34,059 nucleotides of DNA, taken from contig CAZRAL010000028.1 of the NCBI GenBank assembly GCA_964598005.1, forward strand, positions 1 through 34,059. The letters are read 5' to 3'. Numbering within the stretch: the stretch's first letter is position 1; each line of letters opens with the position of its first letter. A program made the position numbers and the translations under genes. The notes under the pieces were generated by a model. The model saw only the letters and a list, made by a program, of their open reading frames with translations, had not been told where the DNA came from and searched no databases. Of the stretch, positions 68-34,043 are shown in pieces. The DNA is from an uncultured Burkholderiales bacterium. Lineage in GTDB: Bacteria > Pseudomonadota > Gammaproteobacteria > Burkholderiales > Usitatibacteraceae.

Positions 68-96
68 TTGACAATAAAACGATCGGGCAATATGAT
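68..96 (+). promoter_or_regulatory. Near-consensus sigma70 promoter: TTGACA (68-73), 17-nt spacer, TATGAT (91-96)
   Basis: Read directly: ttgaca ataaaacgatcgggcaa tatgat. Predicted TSS near 103-104. Feeds the short terminator-bounded unit below. Confidence 0.5.
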
Positions 97-103
97 ACGC
101 GCC

Positions 104-292
104 ATGAATATTTTTCAATCCATAATAATTACTTGCGATCCAGGTGCGCATTTCGCTGTCAAGCGGCGTGCTTATCGACTGGATCCAGACTCAGGCTTTG
201 GGAAGGCTGAAAATTGACTGAATAGGTTGATAACAGGTCAGCAGTTTCCAAAGCCCGGAATACTCGATAAGAGCTCCGGGCTTTGTGTTTTT
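104..292 (+). ncRNA. Candidate small RNA or small-protein transcript (about 190 nt) between the consensus promoter and an intrinsic terminator. Contains a 37-codon ORF (108-221) with no Shine-Dalgarno sequence.
   Basis: Promoter at 68-96 and hairpin plus T-run at 250-292. No long ORF inside. Strand assigned by the T-run following the stem. Confidence 0.3.
250..292 (+). terminator. Rho-independent terminator: stem aaagcccgga/tccgggcttt followed by gtgttttt
   Basis: Perfect 10-bp inverted repeat (250-259 / 275-284) followed by a T-rich run. Confidence 0.6.
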
Positions 293-312
293 AAACATTT
301 GTAGTTTATTGA

Positions 313-398
313 TCCGGAACGATTAACTTTTGAATTTGTTCAGGTAATTCACCTCTGGTTCAATATGCAGCGTAGAGACTTCATCGTTCCGAATTAAT
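313..398 (+). repeat. Copy 1 of a conserved ~90-nt leader module (CGGAACGATTAA ... TAGAGACTTCATCGTTCC) upstream of the DUF1266 gene
   Basis: Aligns with 1141-1227 at roughly 75% identity. Contains an internal 8-bp inverted repeat GGAACGAT/ATCGTTCC separated by about 55 nt. Confidence 0.55.
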
Positions 399-410
399 AA
401 AAGAAAAAAA

Positions 411-1124
411 ATGAAACTTCCCTCCCATTTTGAATGGATTATTTACGCTGTATTGGGTGGTATCGGCCTTTACGTGACTTACCCCTATCTCAGGCGGCTG
501 GTAAGATTCAAGCCCTATAACGTTGGTGAAATCGATTGGAATAAGCCCGAAGTGCGCAAGCTCGCGACCGGCTGTCACATGAACGCCCAATGCTATTTGC
601 GCTGGGATACCTTGCGTTCCGGCGATTCGCCACGTTTCGATGGCCTCCGCAGTTGGTGGGGCATTCGCGATCGGGGCTCAGCAATTGAAGTACTGAATTG
701 GTTGCGCGATGAAGGCCACCGAGCTGACTGGCAGGATACCGTATTGCATCATGCTCAATATGTTGGAGAAGATGTAGACGAGACATTGGCCCACGCCGAG
801 AAATTTTTGCTGAAGCACGGATTGATAAAAAGCCGTGCAGACTTTCAGGCCGGTGTATCGGCATGGGATTGGGGCCGTCTGGTGACGCTCAGTCGATGGT
901 GTTACGACCGCAAATATATAACGGAAGCCGAAGCTTGGCAGTACATCAACCATGCCACACAGCAAAGCCGGGCCGGATTTTCTTCATGGGAAACATATTC
1001 GCAAAGTTACATGATCGGGCAGTTTCTGTGGAACCCCGATCCGTCCGAAAATGAACCCATGGTCACGTTTGTTAAGGATTTGCTGAAAAGTGAAAAAAGC
1101 CCGCTGAAACGTATTCGCTGGTAA
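411..1124 (+). CDS. DUF1266 (YbeU/YbeR-like) family protein, 237 aa
   Basis: Intact ORF. C-terminal motif AWDWGRLVTLSRWCYDRKYITEAEAWQYI resembles DUF1266 from memory. N-terminal hydrophobic segment. A-rich leader with no clear SD. Confidence 0.4.
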   Translation: MKLPSHFEWIIYAVLGGIGLYVTYPYLRRLVRFKPYNVGEIDWNKPEVRKLATGCHMNAQCYLRWDTLRSGDSPRFDGLRSWWGIRDRGSAIEVLNWLRDEGHRADWQDTVLHHAQYVGEDVDETLAHAEKFLLKHGLIKSRADFQAGVSAWDWGRLVTLSRWCYDRKYITEAEAWQYINHATQQSRAGFSSWETYSQSYMIGQFLWNPDPSENEPMVTFVKDLLKSEKSPLKRIRW

Positions 1125-1140
1125 AAAGTGTGTCTATTCC

Positions 1141-1227
1141 TTCGGAACGATTAAGGTGCGAATTTATGCGGATAATCTTCGCTTGGTCTCAATAAACAGC
1201 ATAGAAACTTCATCGTTCCAGATCAAT
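1141..1227 (+). repeat. Copy 2 of the conserved leader module (TTCGGAACGATTAA ... TAGAAACTTCATCGTTCC) upstream of a small ORF
   Basis: Same motif order and spacing as 313-398. ATG of the small ORF is 16 nt downstream, mirroring copy 1 (18 nt). Confidence 0.55.
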
Positions 1228-1242
1228 GTACGGTTTACTGAA

Positions 1243-1458
1243 ATGAATTCGAAATCCAATTTAATGTTGCATAGCGCTCCGATGAAGCCTCGTAAAGGCC
1301 GGATTGCCCCAGCACGTATAGTGCGGCTCAAGCCGGCACAACACATTGCGTATGGTTACGATATGCACTGGCATGGACTGTCGCTTCACCTCGCCGATAC
1401 TTATACAAACTTTAAAGATCGACCGCAATACGCACTCCGGGAACGGTTCATGATGTGA
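1243..1458 (+). CDS. Small hypothetical protein, 71 aa (MNSKSNLMLHSAPMKPRKGRIAPARIVRLKP...)
   Basis: Start chosen at ATG 1243 by analogy with the position of the DUF1266 start relative to the shared leader. The track ORF 1156-1458 would start inside the leader. Followed by an intrinsic terminator. Confidence 0.35.
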   Translation: MNSKSNLMLHSAPMKPRKGRIAPARIVRLKPAQHIAYGYDMHWHGLSLHLADTYTNFKDRPQYALRERFMM

Positions 1459-1501
1459 ACCGTTTTACAAGAACCGAAAATGTTTTTGAAAACCCGGAGT
1501 G

Positions 1502-1540
1502 CCGAAAGGTCTTCGGGTTTTTTTGTTTTTGGATGGTTGG
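1502..1540 (+). terminator. Rho-independent terminator (cccggag..cttcggg stem, then T7 gttttt)
   Basis: GC-rich hairpin followed by ttttttt gttttt directly after the small ORF stop. Confidence 0.6.
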
Positions 1541-1624
1541 CCGAGTGATCGAAGACGGGTTCGATGACATGCGGCGAATGTCATGAAACATTTGCCGCCG
1601 TCAAAAATTTTCATGATTGTTTAT

Positions 1625-1698
1625 GGTGATCTTGGTGTAGTGATAGCACATCGCGCTGTGAACGCGAAAGCCTCGGTTTGATTCCGACGATCACCCCA
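1625..1698 (+). tRNA. tRNA-His (anticodon GTG)-like
   Basis: Perfect 7-bp acceptor stem GGTGATC/GATCACC and discriminator C. Perfect 5-bp anticodon stem TCGCG/CGCGA with canonical loop CTGTGAA. T-arm is CTCGG TTTGATT CCGAC. Oddities: T at position 56 (TTTGATT rather than TTCGATT), weak 3-bp D-stem, no G19, no encoded G-1. Confidence 0.5.
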
Positions 1699-1700
1699 AT

Positions 1701-1775
1701 TAGTGTATAACTCAACAGGAAGAGTAGGAGACTCTTAATCTCAATGTTGTGGGTTTGAGTCCCATTGTACCAACC
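1701..1775 (+). tRNA. tRNA-like sequence, anticodon loop CTCTTAA (Lys-CTT-like). Likely degenerate or pseudo.
   Basis: D-arm ACTC/GAGT. Anticodon stem GGAGA/TCTCA with a G:A mismatch. T-arm GTGGG TTTGAGT CCCAT (T56). Encoded 3' ...TGTACCA A CCA. Acceptor 5' strand TAGTGTA pairs poorly (1 mismatch, 2 wobbles). Paralog of the next tRNA-like sequence. Confidence 0.3.
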
Positions 1776-1939
1776 ATTATTTGCTATATTCATCAGTATT
1801 CGATCCACGCGAAAGCGCAGATCAAAAAGAATTCGTTGTAGAACGTATTGCAGCGGGTGAGGCTCGTGAGTCCTCCCTGGTGCGCTATCCCTGAAAATCG
1901 GGAGGGCGTATACCGCGATGCGGAAAGCAGCGGATGTTG

Positions 1940-2011
1940 GGTAATTTAGCTCAGTGGTAGAGCACAGACCTAATCCGTCTGAGGTCGTGGGTTCGAGTCC
2001 CATATTTACCA
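1940..2011 (+). tRNA. tRNA-like sequence with non-canonical anticodon loop CTAATCC (nominal anticodon AAT, C at position 37). Likely pseudo-tRNA, body Ile-GAT-like.
   Basis: Canonical D-arm TAGCTCAGTGGTAGAGC. Perfect anticodon stem CAGAC/GTCTG. T-arm GTGGG TTCGAGT CCCAT. Acceptor GGTAATT/ATTTACC with one T:T mismatch. No encoded CCA. Confidence 0.35.
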
Positions 2012-2012
2012 T

Positions 2013-2086
2013 GTTTCCATAGCTCATTTGGGTAGAGCAATCGGTTCCCAATCGATGGGTAGCGGGTTCGACTCCCGTTGGAAAAG
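2013..2086 (+). tRNA. tRNA-Gly (CCC)-like
   Basis: D-arm GCTC ATTTGGGT AGAGC. Anticodon stem ATCGG/TCGAT with loop TTCCCAA. T-arm GCGGG TTCGACT CCCGT. Acceptor GTTTCCA/TGGAAAA with a G1:A72 mismatch. Only 1 nt from the preceding tRNA-like sequence. Confidence 0.4.
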
Positions 2087-2353
2087 CAAGGTCTCTGTAA
2101 AAGACCATTTAACTGTAGTACCCGGGCCGGCTCCGGTGAAATGTGCCGTTGTTGTTTGATGCATTTCACACCGCCCACCTCGCTTGTGCGCTGCTCGCGC
2201 GCCTATGCGAGACAGTTCAAACCGCTTGTTGCGGGCTAAGGTTATTTGCTGTTTGGAATAACTGAAACCTGTCGGCAAGTGGTGCGGCTGCTCTCCCGTA
2301 TGCGCAACACTGCGTCCGCTGGGTGGCCGGGGGGCCGGACCACATTTACAAGA

Positions 2354-2367: not shown

Positions 2368-3510
2368 ATGTTAAAAATGTTTCATATTAAAAAAGACGAA
2401 CGTGGCTTGCTGTTAAAACAAGGCGACTTCGCTGCAATTTTGACTGCAGGGGAATATACTTTTTTTGATCCGCTGGCTCGCTTGAGGCTGGAAAAATTTT
2501 CCCTCAGCAAAACGCAATTTGATCACCCGTTGGCGGACTATCTGTTGAAAGCCGAGCTGGAAGTTGTTCGACGCGAATTCCACGTGATTCAGCTGGGGCC
2601 AACCGAGGTCGGGTTGCGTTACGAGAACGGTGTGCTGGCCGAATTGCTGGCGCCCAATACCCGCCTTCTATACTGGAAGGGTTACATCGATCTCAAGTTC
2701 GAGGTAGTCAACATCGCTGAGGAATTTGCGGTAACAAGCAAACTTGTTCCGCAAATCTTTACCAATGCACGTACCAAGATCAGCGGGATTGAAGGTGTGT
2801 TTACTGTGCAGGTGCCGCAGTACCACGTAGCGGTGCTGTATGTGGATGGCAAGGTGGCGAAATTATTGGAGCCGGGTGTTTCAGCATTCTATAAGTTCAC
2901 CCGCGATTTGCGTGCCGATATCGTCGATCTGCGCTTGCAGGTGCTGGAGGTGGCTGGGCAGGAAATTTTGACCAGAGATAAGGTCTCGTTACGCGTCAAC
3001 TTGACAGCTGGCTACCGGATCAGCGATGTACTGGCGGCTTATGCCAAACAAGCCAAACCGGTCGACTTCCTGTACAAGGAGTTGCAGTTTGGGCTGCGCG
3101 CTGCCGTAGGTACCCGTACGCTCGATGAATTGCTGGAAAACAAGCATGTCATCGATGAGGTGGTGAACGAGCATATCAAGCGCCGGTTAACCGGCAAGGA
3201 TGGAGGCTACGGCCTCGAAGTCGAGTCAGTTGGAGTAAAGGACATCATCCTGCCGGGCGAGATGAAGGCTATTCTGGCTAAAGTAGTAGAGGCCGAAAAG
3301 GTGGCGCAGGCCAACGTGATTCGTCGTCGTGAAGAAACCGCGGCTACCCGCTCTTTGCTCAACACCGCTCGTGTGATGGAAGACAACCCGACCGCGCTGC
3401 GTTTGAAAGAGCTGGAAACGCTGGAAAAGGTCACCGAGAAGATCGACAAGATCTCCGTATTCGGCGGCCTCGACGGAGTGCTGAAGGATCTGGTGAAAAT
3501 CCGTCCGTAG
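2368..3510 (+). CDS. SPFH/band-7 (stomatin/prohibitin/flotillin/HflKC) domain protein, about 380 aa
   Basis: Long intact ORF. Internal ATG with a strong RBS preferred over the track start at 2323. Band-7-type core followed by an Ala/Glu/Lys-rich C-terminal coiled-coil region (AEKVAQANVIRRREETAATRSLLN). Confidence 0.6.
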   Translation: MLKMFHIKKDERGLLLKQGDFAAILTAGEYTFFDPLARLRLEKFSLSKTQFDHPLADYLLKAELEVVRREFHVIQLGPTEVGLRYENGVLAELLAPNTRLLYWKGYIDLKFEVVNIAEEFAVTSKLVPQIFTNARTKISGIEGVFTVQVPQYHVAVLYVDGKVAKLLEPGVSAFYKFTRDLRADIVDLRLQVLEVAGQEILTRDKVSLRVNLTAGYRISDVLAAYAKQAKPVDFLYKELQFGLRAAVGTRTLDELLENKHVIDEVVNEHIKRRLTGKDGGYGLEVESVGVKDIILPGEMKAILAKVVEAEKVAQANVIRRREETAATRSLLNTARVMEDNPTALRLKELETLEKVTEKIDKISVFGGLDGVLKDLVKIRP

Positions 3511-3598: not shown

Positions 3599-3976
3599 CT
3601 AGCGAAATGCCCACCGTTGTGAACTTATAAAATTAATGCTCAGCCCAGCAATGGAGCCTGCAGCCACCCCTAACCAAGGATACTGCTGTACTTCGCTGAA
3701 AGTGACAATGACGATTACAAAAACGGCATAATTTACCAGTGCCCCTAGGATCATCAAGGCAAGGTAACGTGACCATTCGTTGTATCCAGCAGGCTGCTTT
3801 ACATTGAAGGTATAGCGCCGATTCAGAAACCAGGTTGCACTGGCTGCCGCTATAAATGAAATAATGCGTCCCAGATATAAATTCAGTCCGGCTTTGGATA
3901 CCAGAATTTGCAGGCCCCCAGCATCGATGACAAAACCCAGCGTACCCACCAGGCAAAAACGCAATAGTTGGCTCAA
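3599..3976 (-). CDS. gtrA: GtrA-family small membrane protein (flippase-associated), about 125 aa from a TTG start overlapping the upstream stop
   Basis: LLRFCLVGTLGFVIDAGGLQILV ... FIAAASATWFLNRRYTF is the GtrA signature. 3-4 TM helices. Start inferred as TTG 3976 overlapping TGA 3975-3973 (TTGA coupling), because the track ORF N-terminus (MPEH...) is antisense shadow of the upstream gene. Confidence 0.6.
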   Translation of the reverse strand: MSQLLRFCLVGTLGFVIDAGGLQILVSKAGLNLYLGRIISFIAAASATWFLNRRYTFNVKQPAGYNEWSRYLALMILGALVNYAVFVIVIVTFSEVQQYPWLGVAAGSIAGLSINFISSQRWAFR

Positions 3977-4911
3977 AGCGAAGCCTGGGACGACTTGATT
4001 TGCAGATAAATCATGCGCTTCATTTCGTGTCGGCCGCGCGAGACGGTATCCAGAATCAATCCGCAGGCCAGGGATAAAAATGCCAGCAGCGTCATTCCGG
4101 TTACCAAAATTGCAGTCGGAAATCTCGGTACTAACCCGGTTTCGGCATAAGTCAAGAATAGCGGAACGGCCAGTATCAATGCAGCCAAACCAAGCAGCAT
4201 GCTCAGGCAACCGAAAAATGCCAGAGGGCGCTCCTGCTTGAACAGTTTCACAATGGTTATCAGGATGCGCATGCCATCACGATAGGTATTGAGCTTGCTC
4301 ACCGAGCCCTCCGGGCGGGATTGGTACGGGGTATCAATTTCATCGATGGGCATGCGCAATTCAAGGGCATGGACCGTCAATTCCGTTTCAATTTCGAAGC
4401 CGTTGGATAAAGCGGGAAACGATTTCACAAAGCGCCGCGAAAATACCCGATAGCCGGAAAGAATGTCGGTAAATGCCCGTCCGAATAACAATCCAACACA
4501 TCCCGTCAATACACGATTCCCTGCACGATGCCCTTTGCGGTAGGCGGCCTGTTCCTCGGTGACTCACTTCCCCACCACCATATCAAGATTTTCGTTAATG
4601 AGCCGGGCGACCATTTTTTCCGCGCTTGTGGCGTGGTAGGTATCATCGCCATCCACCAGCACATAGACATCGGCCTCGACATCTGCAAACATGCGGCGTA
4701 CGACATTGCCTTTGCCTTGCAACGTTACCCGGCGAACCTGTGCCCCTGCCTGCGTAGCGACTTCGATGGTTCGATCACGCGAATTGTTGTCAAAAACATA
4801 AATTTCCGCATGCGGCAATGCGGCGCGAAAATCGCGGACAACCGAACCAATAGCGATTTCTTCGTTGTAACAGGGAATTAATACCGCTACCCGAAATGTT
4901 GAACCAGTCAT
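3973..4911 (-). pseudogene. gtrB: GtrB/ArnC-like family-2 glycosyltransferase (polyprenyl-phosphate sugar transferase) interrupted by an in-frame TGA at 4566-4564
   Basis: Track ORFs 4564-5259 (N part: VAVLIPCYNEE, VFDNNSRDRT, VLVDGDD, DMVVGK*) and 3973-4509 (C part: SGYRVF motif plus 2 C-terminal TM helices) are in the same reading frame. They are separated only by a TGA, giving the read-through sequence ...DMVVGK*VTEEQAAYRKGHRAGNRVLTGCVGLLFG. The ATG at 4911 overlaps the upstream TGA (ATGA). Confidence 0.65.
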
Positions 4912-6593
4912 TTTTTTCCCAAAAAACCAAAGAAGCCGAATACTACAGCAGGAATCAGGGCCATTGCCAAAGGGACAACTGGCGATAAATAGAGCATGTT
5001 GTTGCTGGGAATGGAAGTGGCTTCGAGCAACCCCAGCAACACTACGCGACTGGCCACCGCCGCAACCAAAGCGGAAGCTATAGCCAGCATGGCACTGGCA
5101 CGGCGTTTCCATATTGCTACCGCCACCCACACCCCCCACAAGAAGAGTGCAACCGGAATGCCATATTGTGAAATCCCGGCTTCTGCCGTTGCCAGAAATC
5201 GGGCGATATTGATGCGATTGACCAACTTGAAGCAATCCTGATTGGGCGGGTTCAGGCACATTTCATCGACCGAATATCCCGACACTGCAACCGGCCCGTT
5301 GGTCATCCAGGTCACAAAGGCCAATTGTTCGGGCGACCCGAGGCTAGGCACAACGCCCACTGGGGCGCCATCAAGGGTAAGCAGCGTGGTGAATACTTCC
5401 TTGCTTGCTGCCAGTGTGTCCGCCCAATAATGGTCGCGCCAGGGCGGCACCATTGTGTCGCGGCGGGGCAGGCATTCGCCTGCATGCTGCTTGCAGGCCT
5501 CGTCAATTTCCCGCGCCAGCCGCAAATAAAATGCTTTGGCTGCCTTCGCATTCCGGTAGTGGCCAGCCGCCGCTACGGCGTCGCGCAAAGCCCACATAAA
5601 CCACCCCGATAAAATTTCCGGACAAGATTCGATGTGCAAGTGTTTACAACCGATATCCCGCCACGTCGTTCCAATTTCTCCCTCAAAATAGGGTTTTAAT
5701 TCGCGTGCTGCGGCACTGAATCGATAGGCGCGTTCGCGGGCATCTTTGGGGAATACCACATAACGTTGCCAATGGTCATGCCTGATTCGGCTCAAGGCGC
5801 CATAACCGGCCTGAAAGTCAGCCGAGTGGAAATCGTTGTTACGAAATACCCTATATTTCTGATAATTGTGCGTATTGACGATCCCGATGAGCAACGATGC
5901 TGAAATGACCGGCAACGCCATGAAATATAGTAGCTGCCGATAAGAACGTAACATCGATCGATGCGCTATCAGCCAGTAGCCAAGCAAAATCGCGAGGGGA
6001 GGGAAAAGCCAGGCTCCCTCTTCGCGGGTCAACCAGTAAATGCCCCCGGTAATCCCCAGAGTAAAAAGCAGTGGCCTTTTTTGGTCAATTTCTTCCTTTA
6101 GCGTTGCATTTTTTTGTTCTACCCAGCAGCGAATGGCCAGCGCCAGCAAAAAGAGCGTCAAACTGACATAAAGCCCTTCGCGCACCACTCTCCCCCCTAC
6201 GCCGTGTGTCCATGCGGTCGGGATAAAGGCCAGCAGTATAAAGGTACTCAACGCAATCCACTTGTTTGCGCCAACCCGCGCAACCACAGTGGAAAAATAC
6301 ATGGCTGCGAATAAATACAGAATGTGCTCGGTGAGTTTGAGCGGCAACCCGCTGAAATGATTAAGCAGGAGAAAAACAGGATAAGCCACTCCCTTGGCAT
6401 GGGTTAAATTGTTATAGTCCCCGAGCCAGTGGCCGCCCCCTATTTCCGCTGCCAATTTGACGAATAACATATCGTCGTAGCCCGCGCCGCCCACCGCAAA
6501 AATCGGGAAGGCTGCCCGAATAAACAGGGAAAGCAAAAATATCAGGACTATTAAGGCGTAGTACCCGTTGATTCTAATGTGTGTGTGTTTCAT
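4908..6593 (-). CDS. Large integral-membrane glycosyltransferase (GT-C fold, Gtr type-specific / ArnT-like), 561 aa
   Basis: N-terminal multi-TM block, central soluble (periplasmic-type) domain of about 200 aa, and C-terminal TM helices. Third gene of a gtrA-gtrB-gtrX-type arrangement. Confidence 0.5.
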   Translation of the reverse strand: MKHTHIRINGYYALIVLIFLLSLFIRAAFPIFAVGGAGYDDMLFVKLAAEIGGGHWLGDYNNLTHAKGVAYPVFLLLNHFSGLPLKLTEHILYLFAAMYFSTVVARVGANKWIALSTFILLAFIPTAWTHGVGGRVVREGLYVSLTLFLLALAIRCWVEQKNATLKEEIDQKRPLLFTLGITGGIYWLTREEGAWLFPPLAILLGYWLIAHRSMLRSYRQLLYFMALPVISASLLIGIVNTHNYQKYRVFRNNDFHSADFQAGYGALSRIRHDHWQRYVVFPKDARERAYRFSAAARELKPYFEGEIGTTWRDIGCKHLHIESCPEILSGWFMWALRDAVAAAGHYRNAKAAKAFYLRLAREIDEACKQHAGECLPRRDTMVPPWRDHYWADTLAASKEVFTTLLTLDGAPVGVVPSLGSPEQLAFVTWMTNGPVAVSGYSVDEMCLNPPNQDCFKLVNRINIARFLATAEAGISQYGIPVALFLWGVWVAVAIWKRRASAMLAIASALVAAVASRVVLLGLLEATSIPSNNMLYLSPVVPLAMALIPAVVFGFFGFLGKK

Positions 6594-30422: not shown

Positions 30423-31883
30423 TCATGATGTTGGTACATTCTCAACGCGCATATTCAACATACGTGCGCGGATCGCCTGATAACTGCGCCCATAGAGATA
30501 GACCAAAAGAAAATGCAAGGGCCATCCGCCGGACAATAAAACCCGAAAAAAGGATGTATCTGCAAGCATCCAGATGCAGCCAAGTGAAGATAAACACAGT
30601 AGGCGAAGATTAGTTTTTCTCGACCAGCTATTGAATATTGCCAAAGCGATTCCAAGAATCACCCCGATTAGTACGACACCGAAATAACCGGCCGCTGCTA
30701 TTCCATCAGTCGACCAAAATCCACCGGACATATCATATGTATAAAAACCTGCCTGAAAGTGTCCAACAATCTGTCCAATACTAAATTTTTCGTATGGGTA
30801 ATCTATAAACCAGCTGACAGGCCCAAGGTGGGAATAAAATGTGAATGGGTTTTGGTTGTTAACAAAAAAGTCATAGTAATTACCAAGGGTCATCCCGTTT
30901 ATTGAGAAGGCTCTCTTGACTACCTGAGAGAGAACAAGACCGACCAATTCCTCTACTTCTTGACCATAAATTTCTATAAGAAGCAACACGGCTATTATTA
31001 TTATGGCAAAAAGTTTCCCGATATCTTCGGCTAAGATCTTTTCCTTCTTTAGAACAAAATAATGCACTGCATACATGAGCGGAATCAGAAAAACAATAAA
31101 CTTCGATCCGGTAATAAAGAAGCCCATAAGAAACCCCAAAAATCCAAAGTAAAGAATGTGTCTTTGTTTATACATCATGCCGATCGCAACCATTAATGGC
31201 GATATCACCCGAATCAACCATTGGAGTATATAAGCTGGAAGCGTCCTATTTGGGGAGTATTCCGATACGATATCTCTTTGGTCGTAGACATTTGTGATTT
31301 CCACAATCGTAATCACACTCGCGTAAAATATAAAAAGAAAGGCTGATATAAAAAGAAAAATCAAAATTAAATTGATCTCAAATTTTGAGTTCAAGTATCT
31401 TATGCCGGAAGTGAGTCTGTTGTTCAGTGCTAAGATTAGTTCATGACGATATGTCACATGCTTCCATTTTGCGTTCGCTAGACTTTCTGGAATGAATGCA
31501 ATGAGGTAAAGCGAGACGGTCAGGCAGGCTATCAGAAAATACCCGGCATCTGAGGGGAAACCCTGCATTGCGACGATTATTACCGAAGGAACAAAGACGA
31601 AAAAGAAAAGAAACCAAACCACAAATCGCGAATAAAATACTATCGCTCGTGGGTAGGTCGCCGAAAACATGATGCAGCATAGGCTTGCCAAAATCAGGGG
31701 CCCTAAGCTTCGATCGCTATTGAATTCTGGAAACCCTTGATAGCCCCATACCGGAGTCAAGTAATAGTAGTAATTGTAAATATTAACCAGAATATAAATC
31801 AGCGTGATTGCAACCAGCAGCAATCTGCCTTTTTGAATTACGAGGTTCCCCCGGTTTTTCGTCTGCAAAAAAGCGAGATTCAT
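30423..31883 (-). CDS. wzy: Wzy-like O-antigen/EPS polymerase (polytopic membrane protein). The 5' 14 codons are supplied by the adjacent IS3 inverted repeat.
   Basis: Very AT-rich and hydrophobic. At least 10 TM helices with a large loop. Poorly conserved, as expected for Wzy. The ORF start (MNLAFLQTKNRGNL) lies inside IS sequence 31842-31883. Confidence 0.4.
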   Translation of the reverse strand: MNLAFLQTKNRGNLVIQKGRLLLVAITLIYILVNIYNYYYYLTPVWGYQGFPEFNSDRSLGPLILASLCCIMFSATYPRAIVFYSRFVVWFLFFFVFVPSVIIVAMQGFPSDAGYFLIACLTVSLYLIAFIPESLANAKWKHVTYRHELILALNNRLTSGIRYLNSKFEINLILIFLFISAFLFIFYASVITIVEITNVYDQRDIVSEYSPNRTLPAYILQWLIRVISPLMVAIGMMYKQRHILYFGFLGFLMGFFITGSKFIVFLIPLMYAVHYFVLKKEKILAEDIGKLFAIIIIAVLLLIEIYGQEVEELVGLVLSQVVKRAFSINGMTLGNYYDFFVNNQNPFTFYSHLGPVSWFIDYPYEKFSIGQIVGHFQAGFYTYDMSGGFWSTDGIAAAGYFGVVLIGVILGIALAIFNSWSRKTNLRLLCLSSLGCIWMLADTSFFRVLLSGGWPLHFLLVYLYGRSYQAIRARMLNMRVENVPTS

Positions 31884-32779
31884 GCGACCTGTTTTTCCTG
31901 AGACTGCACTGGCGACTTGTAACCGAGGCTCGAATGCCGCTTCTTGCGGTTGTAAAAAACCTCAATATACTCGAAGCTGGCGGCCTTTATGTCGGCATGA
32001 GTGGCATAGCGAATTCCATGTATCCACTCGTTCTTCAAGCTATTAAACCAGCTCTCCGTCGGCGCATTATCCCAACAGTTGCCTTTCCGACTCATCGAGC
32101 AAGTCATGCCATAGGCCTTGAGCTTATCCTGAAAGGCATGAATGGCGTACTGGCTACCCCGGTCAGAATGGTGCATCAGCCCCGCTATCGGCCGTTTCCT
32201 GAACCAGGCTATAGTTAGCGTATCGATCACGAGGTCCGCTGTCATGTGCGGTTTCAGCGACCAGCCGACTATTTCGCAGTTGAACAGGTCAAGCACGATA
32301 GCCAGATACAGCCAGCCTTCATCGGTCCACAGGTAGGTTATGTCCGATTCCCAGACCTGATTCGGCACCGACGGCGTGAAGTTCCTGTCCAGCAGGTTCT
32401 CCGCCACCGGCAGGCCATATTTCGAGTCCGTCGTCATTTGGTAGCGCCGCTTGTGGCAGGCACGAATGCTGTTGTCGCGCATCAATCGCTCAACCCGTTC
32501 CTTTGCCGGTCGGATATACCCGGCCACGCAGCTCGCACACCATACGCGGGCTGTCGTAAGCGCCTTTGACTTCGCTATGAATGGATTCGATCAGCGCCAG
32601 CATTTGCTGGTCAGAGAGTCGCTTGCGATTAGGTGTGCCACCACGCATCCATGTACGATAACCACTGATGCTGACATTGAGCACGTCACACATTTCAGCT
32701 AGCGAGTATGATTGGCTTTGCTCGGCAATCTAGGCGTACCTCACAGTACACCTCTTGCAAAGTACGCCGTCGCTTTTTT
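31880..32779 (-). pseudogene. IS3-family transposase OrfB, frame-disrupted beyond the programmed -1 site
   Basis: Three frames are needed: -1 frame from the slippery site stops after 11 codons (ATAYFARGVL*); N-terminal OrfB segment IAEQSQSYSLAEMCDVLNVSISGY ... ELRGR lies in the +1 frame (32729-32490); DDE core (RVERLMR ... VWESDITY ... HSDRGSQY ... NAPTESWF) lies in the -1 frame (32527-31880). Confidence 0.65.
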
Positions 32780-33030
32780 AGGATTTCATTCCCCCGCTTC
32801 AACCGCAGATTTTCACCGCGCAGCCTTGAAAGCATCATTTCATCCGGGGTCACGATTGGGCCACCAGGCCCGCTGAGTCTGCCTTTCGCCGCCGCCTTGA
32901 TCCAGTTGTGCAAAGTCTGGTCGCTCAGCCCCACTTCTTTGCATACCCTGCTGACGTTTTGTCCATCATGGATCCGCTTGCCCGCCAGTTCCTTGAATTC
33001 AATTGTGTATGATTGCCTCGGTATTTTCAT
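32695..33030 (-). CDS. IS3-family transposase OrfA (HTH)
   Basis: QSYTIEFKELAGKRIHDGQNVSRVCKEVGLSDQTLHNWIK HTH. Slippery heptamer A AAA AAG at 32779-32773 near the 3' end. The -1 frame after it reads ATAYFAR, the conserved OrfAB junction. Confidence 0.8.
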   Translation of the reverse strand: MKIPRQSYTIEFKELAGKRIHDGQNVSRVCKEVGLSDQTLHNWIKAAAKGRLSGPGGPIVTPDEMMLSRLRGENLRLKRGNEILKKRRRTLQEVYCEVRLDCRAKPIILAS

Positions 33031-33098
33031 GTTCTGCCTTTCATTTGTGATGTCAATTTTAGATCACCCTTGGCAGACGAAAAACCGGGGGAACCTCA

Positions 33099-33361
33099 AA
33101 ATACGACCGAAGCGCTTTTTGTCGATTGCTTTCTTTAGGAGTTGAAGAATTGGATTTAGTCGATTTTGTTTGACAACAAAAAGGAATACGCCCACTTTGT
33201 CACAAGCCTCGACCATACGAAGGTCACCCTGCCAATATATTACCACGGGCTTTTCTGTCATCACATGAAAAACAGCTGTAGCGGCTTGAATAGTTTGCTT
33301 AGAATGTAAACCAGATGGTGTAGCAAGAACGATGACATCGGCTTCTATGCTTGAAGCATTT
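33099..33361 (-). pseudogene. Internal fragment of a Gfo/Idh/MocA-family NAD-dependent sugar oxidoreductase (WbpB-like), truncated at both ends by IS elements
   Basis: DVIVLATPSGLH ... HVMTEKP ... LRMVEACDKVGVFLFVVKQNRLNPILQLLKKAIDKKRFGRIL is a conserved block that normally spans roughly residues 60-150 of such proteins. Upstream it is stopped by TGATGA at the edge of the second IS. Downstream it abuts the IS3 end at 33098. Confidence 0.6.
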
Positions 33362-33431
33362 CATCAAAATGTGAAGTTGAAGTCACCCCCATTTCACGGA
33401 CACCTTATTGTTCTTTCAGAAGGAGTCCGAA

Positions 33432-34043
33432 ATGTCCAAACCGTACATCCGCAAACCGCCCTATCCGGCGCAATTTCGAGAACAGATGATTGAGCTGGTT
33501 CGCGCGGGGTGCAAGCCCGGCGAATTGACCAAGGAGTATGGCTGCCATGTCACCAGTATCCTGAACTGGATAGGCCAGGCCGATGGAGCGACCGGTGTCG
33601 TGCCAACCCAGGCCAGTGCGCTCAGTGCCAGTGAACGCCAGGAGCTCATCGAGCTGCGTCCCCAGTTGCGCCAAGTCCAGATGGAACAAGATATCCTTGC
33701 AAAGGCTACGGCCTGGTTTGCCAACAACGGCGACAACACGTTCACCCCCGTCTACGCGGAGCTGCAAGACGCAGGCATGGTGGCCAGCCGCAAGCGCATT
33801 GCCCGTTTGATGCGACACGAGCAGATGCGTGGAGTCAGTCGCAGGCGCAGCTTCTGCGTGACTGAGCGAGATGTCCGGCATCGCCCGGCACCGGACTTGG
33901 TGAATCGTGAGTTTGTGGCCACCGACATCAACCAGTTGTGGGTGGCCGACATGACCTACATCCCGACCTGGACGGGATTGCTGTACCCGGCCATGGTTAT
34001 TGATCCGAGATTTTCCATTAGGCTGGTCCCATTGCAGAGCTAA
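33432..34043 (+). CDS. IS3-family transposase with OrfA and OrfB fused in one frame (internal deletion derivative). C-terminus anomalous or partial.
   Basis: AGGAG RBS 7 nt before ATG 33432. OrfA HTH (MSKPYIRKPPYPAQFREQMIELVRAGCKPGELTKEYG), ATAWFA junction motif, then directly KRIARLMR ... DINQLWVADMTYIP (first catalytic Asp). The OrfB N-terminal segment of about 50 aa expected between them is absent. Ends ...VIDPRFSIRLVPLQS* at 34043, deviating from the conserved VIDLFSRxVVGW. Confidence 0.55.
   Translation: MSKPYIRKPPYPAQFREQMIELVRAGCKPGELTKEYGCHVTSILNWIGQADGATGVVPTQASALSASERQELIELRPQLRQVQMEQDILAKATAWFANNGDNTFTPVYAELQDAGMVASRKRIARLMRHEQMRGVSRRRSFCVTERDVRHRPAPDLVNREFVATDINQLWVADMTYIPTWTGLLYPAMVIDPRFSIRLVPLQS

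Follow-up and report, generated by a model that had tools for sequence, protein, structure and literature searches.

A 76-nt inverted-repeat element on both sides of a DUF1266 gene in an uncultured Burkholderiales bacterium

Why should two unrelated small genes carry the same leader? The question is raised by contig CAZRAL010000028.1 of an uncultured Burkholderiales bacterium (Usitatibacteraceae), a stretch of 34,059 nt that is called the window here. Near its start, a gene of the DUF1266 family and a gene for a 71-aa protein are each preceded by a copy of the same 76-nt element, whose ends are inverted repeats (Table 1). The answer tentatively favored here, at somewhat less than an even chance, is that the leader belongs to a composite, transposon-like insertion, in which two MITE-like elements (MITE, miniature inverted-repeat transposable element) enclosed the DUF1266 gene as a passenger.

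Two copies of one element in a conserved locus

The two copies are direct repeats, and each lies in an intergenic region of exactly 118 nt (293-410 and 1125-1242). The initial annotation had described a duplicated unit, in the same orientation, before two unrelated genes, and this unit is genuine. Alignment of 290-425 with 1118-1258 gives a mean column identity of 80%, blastn of 293-410 against the entire window returns 1132-1227 as the sole match (72.9% over 96 nt, E 2.6e-10), and a repeat search of the window also reports the pair. No third copy is found in the window with an nhmmer profile of the copies. Each copy starts with GGAACGATTAA and ends with TTCATCGTTCC. These arms form an inverted repeat, which had been given as 8 bp; it is present but extends over 11 nt, with complementarity at 10 of the 11 positions (8 + 2 pairs) and one conserved T.C mismatch. 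The arm words GGAACGATTAA and TTCATCGTTCC are absent elsewhere in the window. When up to one mismatch is allowed, four matches are found in the window against 0.55 expected, and an inverted repeat of at least 10/11 with 40-70 nt spacing occurs in 0.6% of shuffled 120-mers. The arms are separated by 53 nt, their centers are 64 and 65 bp apart (about six helical turns), and neither arm is palindromic by itself. They end 20 nt (copy 1) and 23 nt (copy 2) before the ATGs; the module as delimited in the initial annotation ends 12 and 15 nt before them, rather than the 16-18 nt first reported. The GC content of the element is 40%, compared with 48% for the window.

Identity between the copies is unevenly distributed. 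It is complete in the arms and the bases adjacent to them (25/25), lower in the interior (33/52), and about 47% in the flanks (21/45); the homology is essentially limited to the stretch from arm to arm. At the rate of the interior, the chance of 25/25 identity is about 1e-5. Note that the conserved positions include the T.C mismatch and unpaired bases beside the arms, implying that the arm sequence itself, and not complementarity alone, has been kept or was needed when the copies arose. Two independent Logan assemblies (L120 and L121) are identical to the window over the element region, and the closest relative (L122) comes from a different study, which rules out an assembly artifact.

Table 1. 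Coordinates of the element copies, their arms, and the genes and signals around them
Feature	Position	Strand	Remarks
Sigma-70 promoter, TTGACA-17-TATGAT	68..96	+	position weight matrix (PWM) score 15.4; conserved in relatives
Intrinsic terminator of upstream small ORF/RNA	250..292	+	directly 5' of the insertion; conserved in relatives
GATC, left half of possible 4-bp target-site duplication	311..314	.	L122 also GATC
Element copy 1	316..390	+	75 nt; AT-rich, 40% GC; 90% identical at L122 62-136
5' arm of copy 1, GGAACGATTAA	316..326	+	same letters in copy 2 and L122
Minus-strand promoter-like motif, TTAATT-N17-TACGCT	369..397	-	17-nt spacer contains the 3' arm; a lead only
3' arm of copy 1, TTCATCGTTCC	380..390	+	10/11 complementary to the 5' arm
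DUF1266 gene	411..1124	+	237 aa, N-terminal hydrophobic segment; Pfam PF06889, E 1.5e-36
Element copy 2	1144..1219	+	76 nt; 5' 55 nt gone in L122
5' arm of copy 2, GGAACGATTAA	1144..1154	+	
Minus-strand motif in copy 2, TTGATC-N17-TATGCT	1198..1226	-	same register as in copy 1
3' arm of copy 2, TTCATCGTTCC	1209..1219	+	kept in L122 at 882-892
GATC, right half of possible target-site duplication	1221..1224	.	L122 has AATC
Gene for 71-aa conserved small protein	1243..1458	+	tblastn homologues in L122-L128
Intrinsic terminator after 71-aa open reading frame (ORF)	1492..1530	+	abuts tRNA-Tyr remnant at 1531

The DUF1266 assignment, already made in the initial annotation, is right. Differences between the window and L122 fall at the three codon positions of this gene in the numbers 6/5/19, which indicates purifying selection. 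A literature search on DUF1266 yielded nothing bearing on regulation. The 71-aa ORF is, judging from its tblastn homologues in six related contigs, a real gene. Its protein has no match in Pfam or NCBIfam; the family is conserved, 71-78 aa long, with the motif MKP..GRIAPAR. Here the corresponding differences are 6/4/7, and these suggest relaxed constraint since the insertion. Neither gene is preceded by a Shine-Dalgarno (SD) sequence, in agreement with the initial annotation, and the run of eight A's noted before the first ATG exists as seven, or eight if the A of ATG is counted. As for a terminator belonging to each gene, those before copy 1 and after the 71-aa ORF are found, but none follows the DUF1266 gene.

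Relatives of the locus were reached via the slipin (Band_7) gene at 2368-3510, and their sources name them Betaproteobacteria metagenome-assembled genomes (MAGs). Two genomes available carry the element: that of the window and L122. Protein searches with a word index, for DUF1266 and for the 71-aa protein, return the L122 homologue only in each case. L122 is 92-96% identical to the window in DNA and has copy 1 intact before its DUF1266 gene, with 47/53 positions identical in the interior, 22/22 in the arms, and 92-96% in coding sequence. It lacks 73 nt corresponding to window 1126-1198, made up of the 18-nt left flank of copy 2 and its 5' 55 nt, so that the 3' arm and a few adjacent bases remain. 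A TAAA microhomology is found at the edges of the deletion. With 37% of the interior positions different between copy 2 and copy 1, this must be a loss in L122 and not a gain in the window. The check for further copies proposed at the outset yields copy 1 and a remnant of copy 2 in L122, but nothing elsewhere in the window or in five more distant relatives.

In these five (L123, L124, L126, L127, and L128), the slipin gene is 78-83% identical to that of the window. Their loci share one order. A divergent HTH_26 gene and a promoter TTGAC(A/T)-N17-TA(T/A/G)GAT are followed by a small ORF or RNA (about 190 nt) and its terminator; after a spacer measuring 35-45 nt come the 71-78-aa gene and the second terminator, then a tRNA array right after the T-run, and finally the slipin gene. 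DUF1266 is absent from the orthologous locus in all five, and the element has left no trace there (no nhmmer match). Because the five keep the locus without either, the element and the DUF1266 gene must, on this comparison, have entered the spacer before L122 and the window genome diverged, in their common ancestor. To the left of copy 1, the flank (293-315) resembles the spacer of the relatives (p 0.0025-0.04 in three of four), which places the beginning of the foreign DNA at the 5' arm. The initial annotation spoke of a duplicated mobile promoter module; mobility fits the absence in five relatives, but no sigma-70 promoter is conserved on the plus strand (PWM scores reach 5.9 at most, whereas the promoter at 68-96 scores 15.4).

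How the unit may have moved

In the composite reading, element, DUF1266 gene, and element would have moved together as a unit of 906 bp (315-1220) into the short spacer between the terminator and the resident 71-aa gene. Of the two genes, the 71-aa gene is the ancestral resident and DUF1266, between the element copies, the passenger. The arms would be recognition sites of a transposase or recombinase supplied in trans, and the action of such an enzyme at the arms would explain why their sequence has been kept, unpaired positions included. The two copies would have been different members of one element family at the time of the move. Today the element would be transcribed passively in the read-through RNA from the promoter at 68-96. 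Any effects on DUF1266 or the 71-aa gene, whether by an RNA stem or by the promoter-like site on the minus strand, would be secondary, as in other bacterial MITEs. A parent transposase or recombinase element would be predicted to carry TGGAACGATKAA at its ends, and the empty site before insertion is predicted to have read GTTTATTGATCAATGTACGG, GTAGTTTATTGATCAATGTACGGTTTACTG.

The junctions are consistent with such a move. The outer ones read GATC/C-GGAACG ... CGTTCC-A/GATC, with one base between GATC and arm on each side, and no matching repeat is found at the inner ones (AATT at 392-395, CCTT at 1139-1142). Composite transposition with a 4-bp target duplication would be expected to leave a direct repeat at the outer junctions and none at the inner ones. 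The outer ends in L122 make up an inverted repeat of 12 nt, TGGAACGATTAA ... TTCATCGTTCCA, i.e., T-GGAACGATTAA ... TTCATCGTTCC-A. All three full copies are short non-coding elements bounded by terminal inverted repeats, as MITEs are, and the site is empty in five relatives, with a spacer of 35-45 nt. The arrangement would suit a composite, with a passenger between the two copies and outer ends in inverted orientation, and the candidate direct repeat is confined to the outside, where its four bases are statistically weak. It is reported that MITEs may number just 1-22 copies per genome, and composites of two MITEs moving passenger genes are documented (PMC10969869, PMC4133298, PMC13367494). The initial annotation had listed, as an outcome that would go against its own proposal, that the module is part of a MITE end; this comes close to the reading favored here.

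Several observations weigh against the composite reading. The GATC repeat has a coincidence chance of about 3-4% by our own estimate over the offsets and units inspected, and it is imperfect in L122. Single copies have no target-site duplication of their own (GATC/AATT for copy 1, CCTT/GATC for copy 2). No parent insertion sequence (IS) or transposon with matching ends is known, and derivation from the IS3-family element of the window (31837-33102) is rejected because its 33-nt ends are unrelated. There is no further copy in about 85 kb of the relatives' loci, no match to the strict pattern in JGI metagenome contigs, no full match in three scans of IMG/VR, and nothing by blastn against plasmid and phage collections. 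In a scan of a genome collection with GGAACGATNAAN{45,60}TTNATCGTTCC, none of the 123 matches listed resembles the element. The two known copies share one locus and one orientation and lie 20 and 23 nt from their ATGs; with orientation and distance so alike, local duplication of a regulatory leader fits too. The linkers between the element copies and DUF1266 measure 20 and 19 nt; packing as tight as this would be less usual in an arbitrary composite transposon than in a gene cassette. Finally, the right boundary of the insertion (391 or 1220) is not fixed statistically. Whole-spacer alignments favored an insertion of copy 1 only, with an ancestral A-rich leader before DUF1266; once base composition was controlled, neither right flank was significantly similar to the relatives and this signal was gone. 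The copy-1-only model would also need an in-frame fusion of DUF1266 with the start codon already present. We prefer a single-event insertion of the whole unit, on parsimony only.

The partial matches met in these scans are chance. The one arms-only match in the JGI contigs (L125) lies inside a cold-shock protein gene, and all eight half-pattern matches in IMG/VR are of the same kind. The genome-collection scan was dominated by a repeat of Acidobacteriota, a hairpin of inverted GAACGAT heptamer runs (GGAACGATGAACGATGAAC ... GTTCATCGTTCATCGTTCC). It is abundant in MAGs of Pyrinomonadaceae and other Acidobacteriota (loci L002-L119), with several copies per contig. This repeat is unrelated to the element, and the arm word is common to both by chance.

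If the composite reading is true, a very small transposase-less element would have moved one gene of unknown function into a conserved chromosomal locus, and the bacterial MITEs, so far sparsely catalogued, would gain an unusually short element family. For annotation, the case illustrates that a leader common to two unrelated genes is not necessarily a regulatory RNA; the relatives indicate that the shared leader arrived together with one of the genes. Its value lies mainly in a well-delimited insertion that is directly testable on raw reads (SRR12762285, SRR12762283, and ERR12350087). The finding opens no long-standing question. Under any of the readings, the element is confined, on the genomes compared, to a single shallow lineage, and the sister genome already shows one half of it in decay, hence the interest is modest.

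Regulatory, neutral, and recombination-site alternatives

The strongest competitor is a duplicated cis-regulatory DNA cassette, in which each element would hold the promoter for the gene downstream and its arms would bind one looping regulator across a 64-65-bp loop. We consider this unlikely, although it deserves to be taken seriously, and we are just as doubtful of the small regulon that DUF1266 and the 71-aa gene would then form. The arrangement suits a cassette. Both copies have the same orientation, nearly equal distances to the ATG, and intergenic regions of the same length; the arms are better conserved than the interior, and a separation of about six helical turns puts their centers on the same helix face. 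Copy 1 fills the whole space from the terminator to DUF1266, a gene that, being under purifying selection, must be expressed. What is missing is the promoter. The best plus-strand sigma-70 score, 5.9, is roughly the chance level for the approximately 600 candidate sites in the 127-nt region, against 15.4 for the control promoter at 68-96, and the best sites differ between the copies. Thus no coding-strand -35/-10 pair, with operators flanking it, is conserved between them. One of the conserved blocks reported earlier, GGTAAT/GATAAT, holds for the window copies, but it is GGTAAC in L122, where the candidate -10 GGTAAT is therefore altered. By inspection, sigma-54, sigma-32, sigma-28, and extracytoplasmic function (ECF; GGAAC-N16/17) motifs each fit at most one copy, and none has a spacing conserved in the other. 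Unlike usual dimeric operators, neither arm is palindromic, and in L122 copy 2 has lost its 5' arm and interior. The looping DNA-binding regulator suggested in the initial annotation is neither supported nor excluded by non-palindromic arms 64-65 bp apart.

The relatives, too, speak against a promoter at this point. Their 71-aa gene lies 35-45 nt past the terminator, and their tRNA array follows directly after the next one. As a promoter would fit neither into the interval before the small gene nor into that before the first tRNA, the locus, element included, is probably transcribed by read-through from the promoter at 68-96.

Such read-through is the basis of an RNA reading, in which the arms pair as a 10-bp long-range stem before each cistron and would act as an RNase III site or 5' stabilizer, as in Correia elements. 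Co-transcription from 68-96 is likely, and the stem is predicted in each copy's minimum free energy fold as well as in the consensus. Even so, we regard the reading as rather improbable. The fold z-scores against shuffles are -1.35 and 0.01 (plus strand), the interior has no conserved substructure, and pairing leaves the conserved mismatch and the unpaired neighbors of the arms unexplained. The covariation check suggested earlier gives no compensatory change, with 10/10 stem pairs invariant among the three full copies. Three sequences have little covariation power, and in the consensus fold the invariance of all ten pairs speaks neither for nor against pairing. No Rfam family matches: a search of Rfam 15, at the gathering threshold and again with E allowed up to 10, returned only noise (11.8-14.8 bits against thresholds of 50-90). 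The stem is clear of the translation start region, 20 and 23 nt before the ATGs, so that it masks neither an SD sequence nor a start codon, and no terminator or antiterminator alternative is found downstream; copy 2 of L122 lacks one arm altogether. A riboswitch or thermosensor reading is unsupported. The riboregulator or thermosensor of the initial annotation likewise finds no support, given the absence of an Rfam match, the z-scores, the lack of compensatory change, and the lack of an SD sequence to sequester.

Two further RNA candidates were rejected. For pairing of the upstream RNA (97-292) with the element, duplex energies are no better than those of shuffles, and the method is not meaningful at such length. 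A tRNA pseudogene was considered for its length of 75-76 nt, its paired ends, and the adjacent tRNA array; its T-loop-like GGTTCAATA is in the wrong register, and neither ARAGORN nor the Rfam tRNA model finds anything at 316-390 or 1144-1219 (E up to 10).

A neutral local duplication has a low probability in our judgment. In this case the leader would have been copied when DUF1266 was captured and would have no present function, the identity of the arms being a coincidence or a mutational cold spot. The element is carried by two genomes only, L122 tolerates the loss of two-thirds of copy 2, and copy 1 is no better conserved against L122 than its surroundings. Uniform decay would, however, produce arms at 25/25 beside an interior at 33/52 with a probability of only about 1e-5.

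The minus strand offers another possibility, which we hold to be very improbable. A leftward sigma-70 promoter would have its -35 and -10 on either side of the 3' arm, with the arm in the spacer, and would produce an antisense RNA. The course of this RNA, toward the upstream terminator from copy 1 and against the 3' end of DUF1266 from copy 2, is equally doubtful. The motif TT(A/G)AT(T/C)-N17-TA(C/T)(G/A)(C/T)(T/C) is in the same register at all four copies of the 3' arm. Its PWM scores are 6.0, 8.2, 10.7, and 4.6, and the highest of these falls within the window's 0.005% tail. In the -10, T1 and A2 never vary, and three of the four copies retain T6. These copies are homologous and hence no independent evidence, and such a match is not rare in an AT-rich repeat. 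No conserved terminator or structure lies downstream, and the part that would be transcribed is deleted in copy 2 of L122. An inverting promoter switch is rejected: the copies in the window, L120, L121, and L122 (both) all have the same orientation, and 53 bp is very short for inversion.

The element could also be the footprint of site-specific recombination, with att-like or cassette-type sites between which a promoterless DUF1266 cassette was integrated, as in integron attC or dif modules. Direct repeats tightly flank a single acquired ORF (20 and 19 nt), the genes are without SD sequences and promoters of their own, and conserved inverted ends enclose a variable center. The size range of attC sites is 57-141 nt, within which 76 nt falls. 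Against this, inspection shows ends of the form YYGGAAC / GTTCCRR and not RYYYAAC / GTTRRRY, and arms 53 nt apart do not make an Xer/dif or lox-type core site. The spacer of the relatives has no resident site, just two sites are present, and a search of the window for genes of the recombinase type turned up just one, the rve transposase of the IS3 family, 31 kb off. We therefore find little probability in this reading. Still less can be granted to its variant, a recombination site of an unrecognized gene-cassette system, attC-like but outside the recognition of integron integrases; the corollary that DUF1266 would be a single cassette captured into the read-through unit before the tRNA array is as remote. 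A template or variable repeat of a diversity-generating retroelement is dismissed by inspection, as the differences between the copies are not limited to adenines and neither copy is coding.

Surroundings of the locus and closest known systems

Upstream of the insertion, 68-292 is a conserved unit that consists of the sigma-70 promoter, an ATG 6-8 nt past the -10, a CCGGGAGG block, and the terminator. Its counterparts are L123 7230-7480, L124 7200-7460, L126 2285-2500, and L127 2685-2900, and in the relatives it is divergent from an HTH_26/Xre gene. Because the ATG follows the -10 by only 6-8 nt, the unit probably encodes a leaderless ORF of 37-50 aa (104-217 in the window). Rfam gives only a weak RsmY-like match (186-284, 17.8 bits, E 0.19). 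The unit may be a small protein, a small RNA, or an attenuator acting on the genes downstream. Around the -35 of this promoter (62-86) the word AAACGAT is found two times, in AAAACGATTGACA and in AAAACGATCGGG. It overlaps the arm word AACGAT, but the relatives do not conserve it, and it is probably there by chance.

Downstream, the tRNA array begins right after the terminator (window 1531-2087, L122 1201-2245, L123 7810-9730). L123 has 14 tRNAs and L122 has six; the window has His, Ile(AAT), Gly(CCC), and one found by Rfam only (1701-1773). The window has lost 557 bp (L122 1225-1781), and a 25-nt stump of tRNA-Tyr remains at 1531-1555. Several tRNAs of the array have A34 anticodons unusual for bacteria (Ile AAT, Asn ATT). 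RtcB is encoded a few genes upstream in L124 and L127.

Farther on, a long polysaccharide-biosynthesis cluster occupies the minus strand (about 3600-31900). A family-2 glycosyltransferase is one 312-aa gene in L122 (4127-5065), corresponds to 3973-5259 in the window, and is split into two calls of 178 and 115 aa in the window's Logan twin; the window gene may be frameshifted or interrupted. Adjoining the cluster are the IS3-family element, with 33-nt inverted ends that are 91% complementary and an rve-domain transposase (31880-32527), and a second transposase-like ORF (33408-34043) that runs up to the contig end.

How does the element compare with known systems? The gal, lac, and ara promoters are bracketed by two operators joined by one repressor. 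As in these, two identical sites lie here on one helix face and enclose an AT-rich segment upstream of a gene; here, however, the sites are non-palindromic halves, the segment they enclose has no recognizable promoter, and a regulator gene to go with them is lacking. Integron attC sites and their gene cassettes are similar in the imperfect inverted repeat, the conserved ends, the variable center, and the compact promoterless ORFs. The ends do not match the core sites RYYYAAC / GTTRRRY, no integron integrase was found in the window, and there is no attI and only two sites.

The heptamer GATTAAC is common to the Correia elements of Neisseria and the element described here; no sequence relationship is established beyond that. 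Correia elements likewise belong to Betaproteobacteria and are intergenic, bounded by inverted repeats, and located just upstream of genes (PMC2649163). Co-transcription is possible for them, their repeats can pair as an RNase III substrate, and promoters can be created at their ends (PMC2649163). They differ in their length of about 105-155 bp, 26-bp repeats, TA duplication, and hundreds of copies, none of which applies to the element in the window.

To our knowledge, the 76-bp element is shorter than known bacterial MITE families. It also departs from MITEs in that only two copies are known and no cognate transposase or parent IS or transposon is known, a target duplication is missing around the individual copies, and the arms (GGAACGATTAA) are unlike any IS end compared. 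What it shares with MITEs and with composites of two MITEs (e.g., TIME-COMPs; PMC4133298, PMC13367494, PMC10969869) is a small, non-coding, AT-rich body with terminal inverted repeats. As in the composites, the copies bracket a passenger gene, the outer repeats bound the unit, a candidate short direct repeat lies at the junctions, and the site is empty in relatives.

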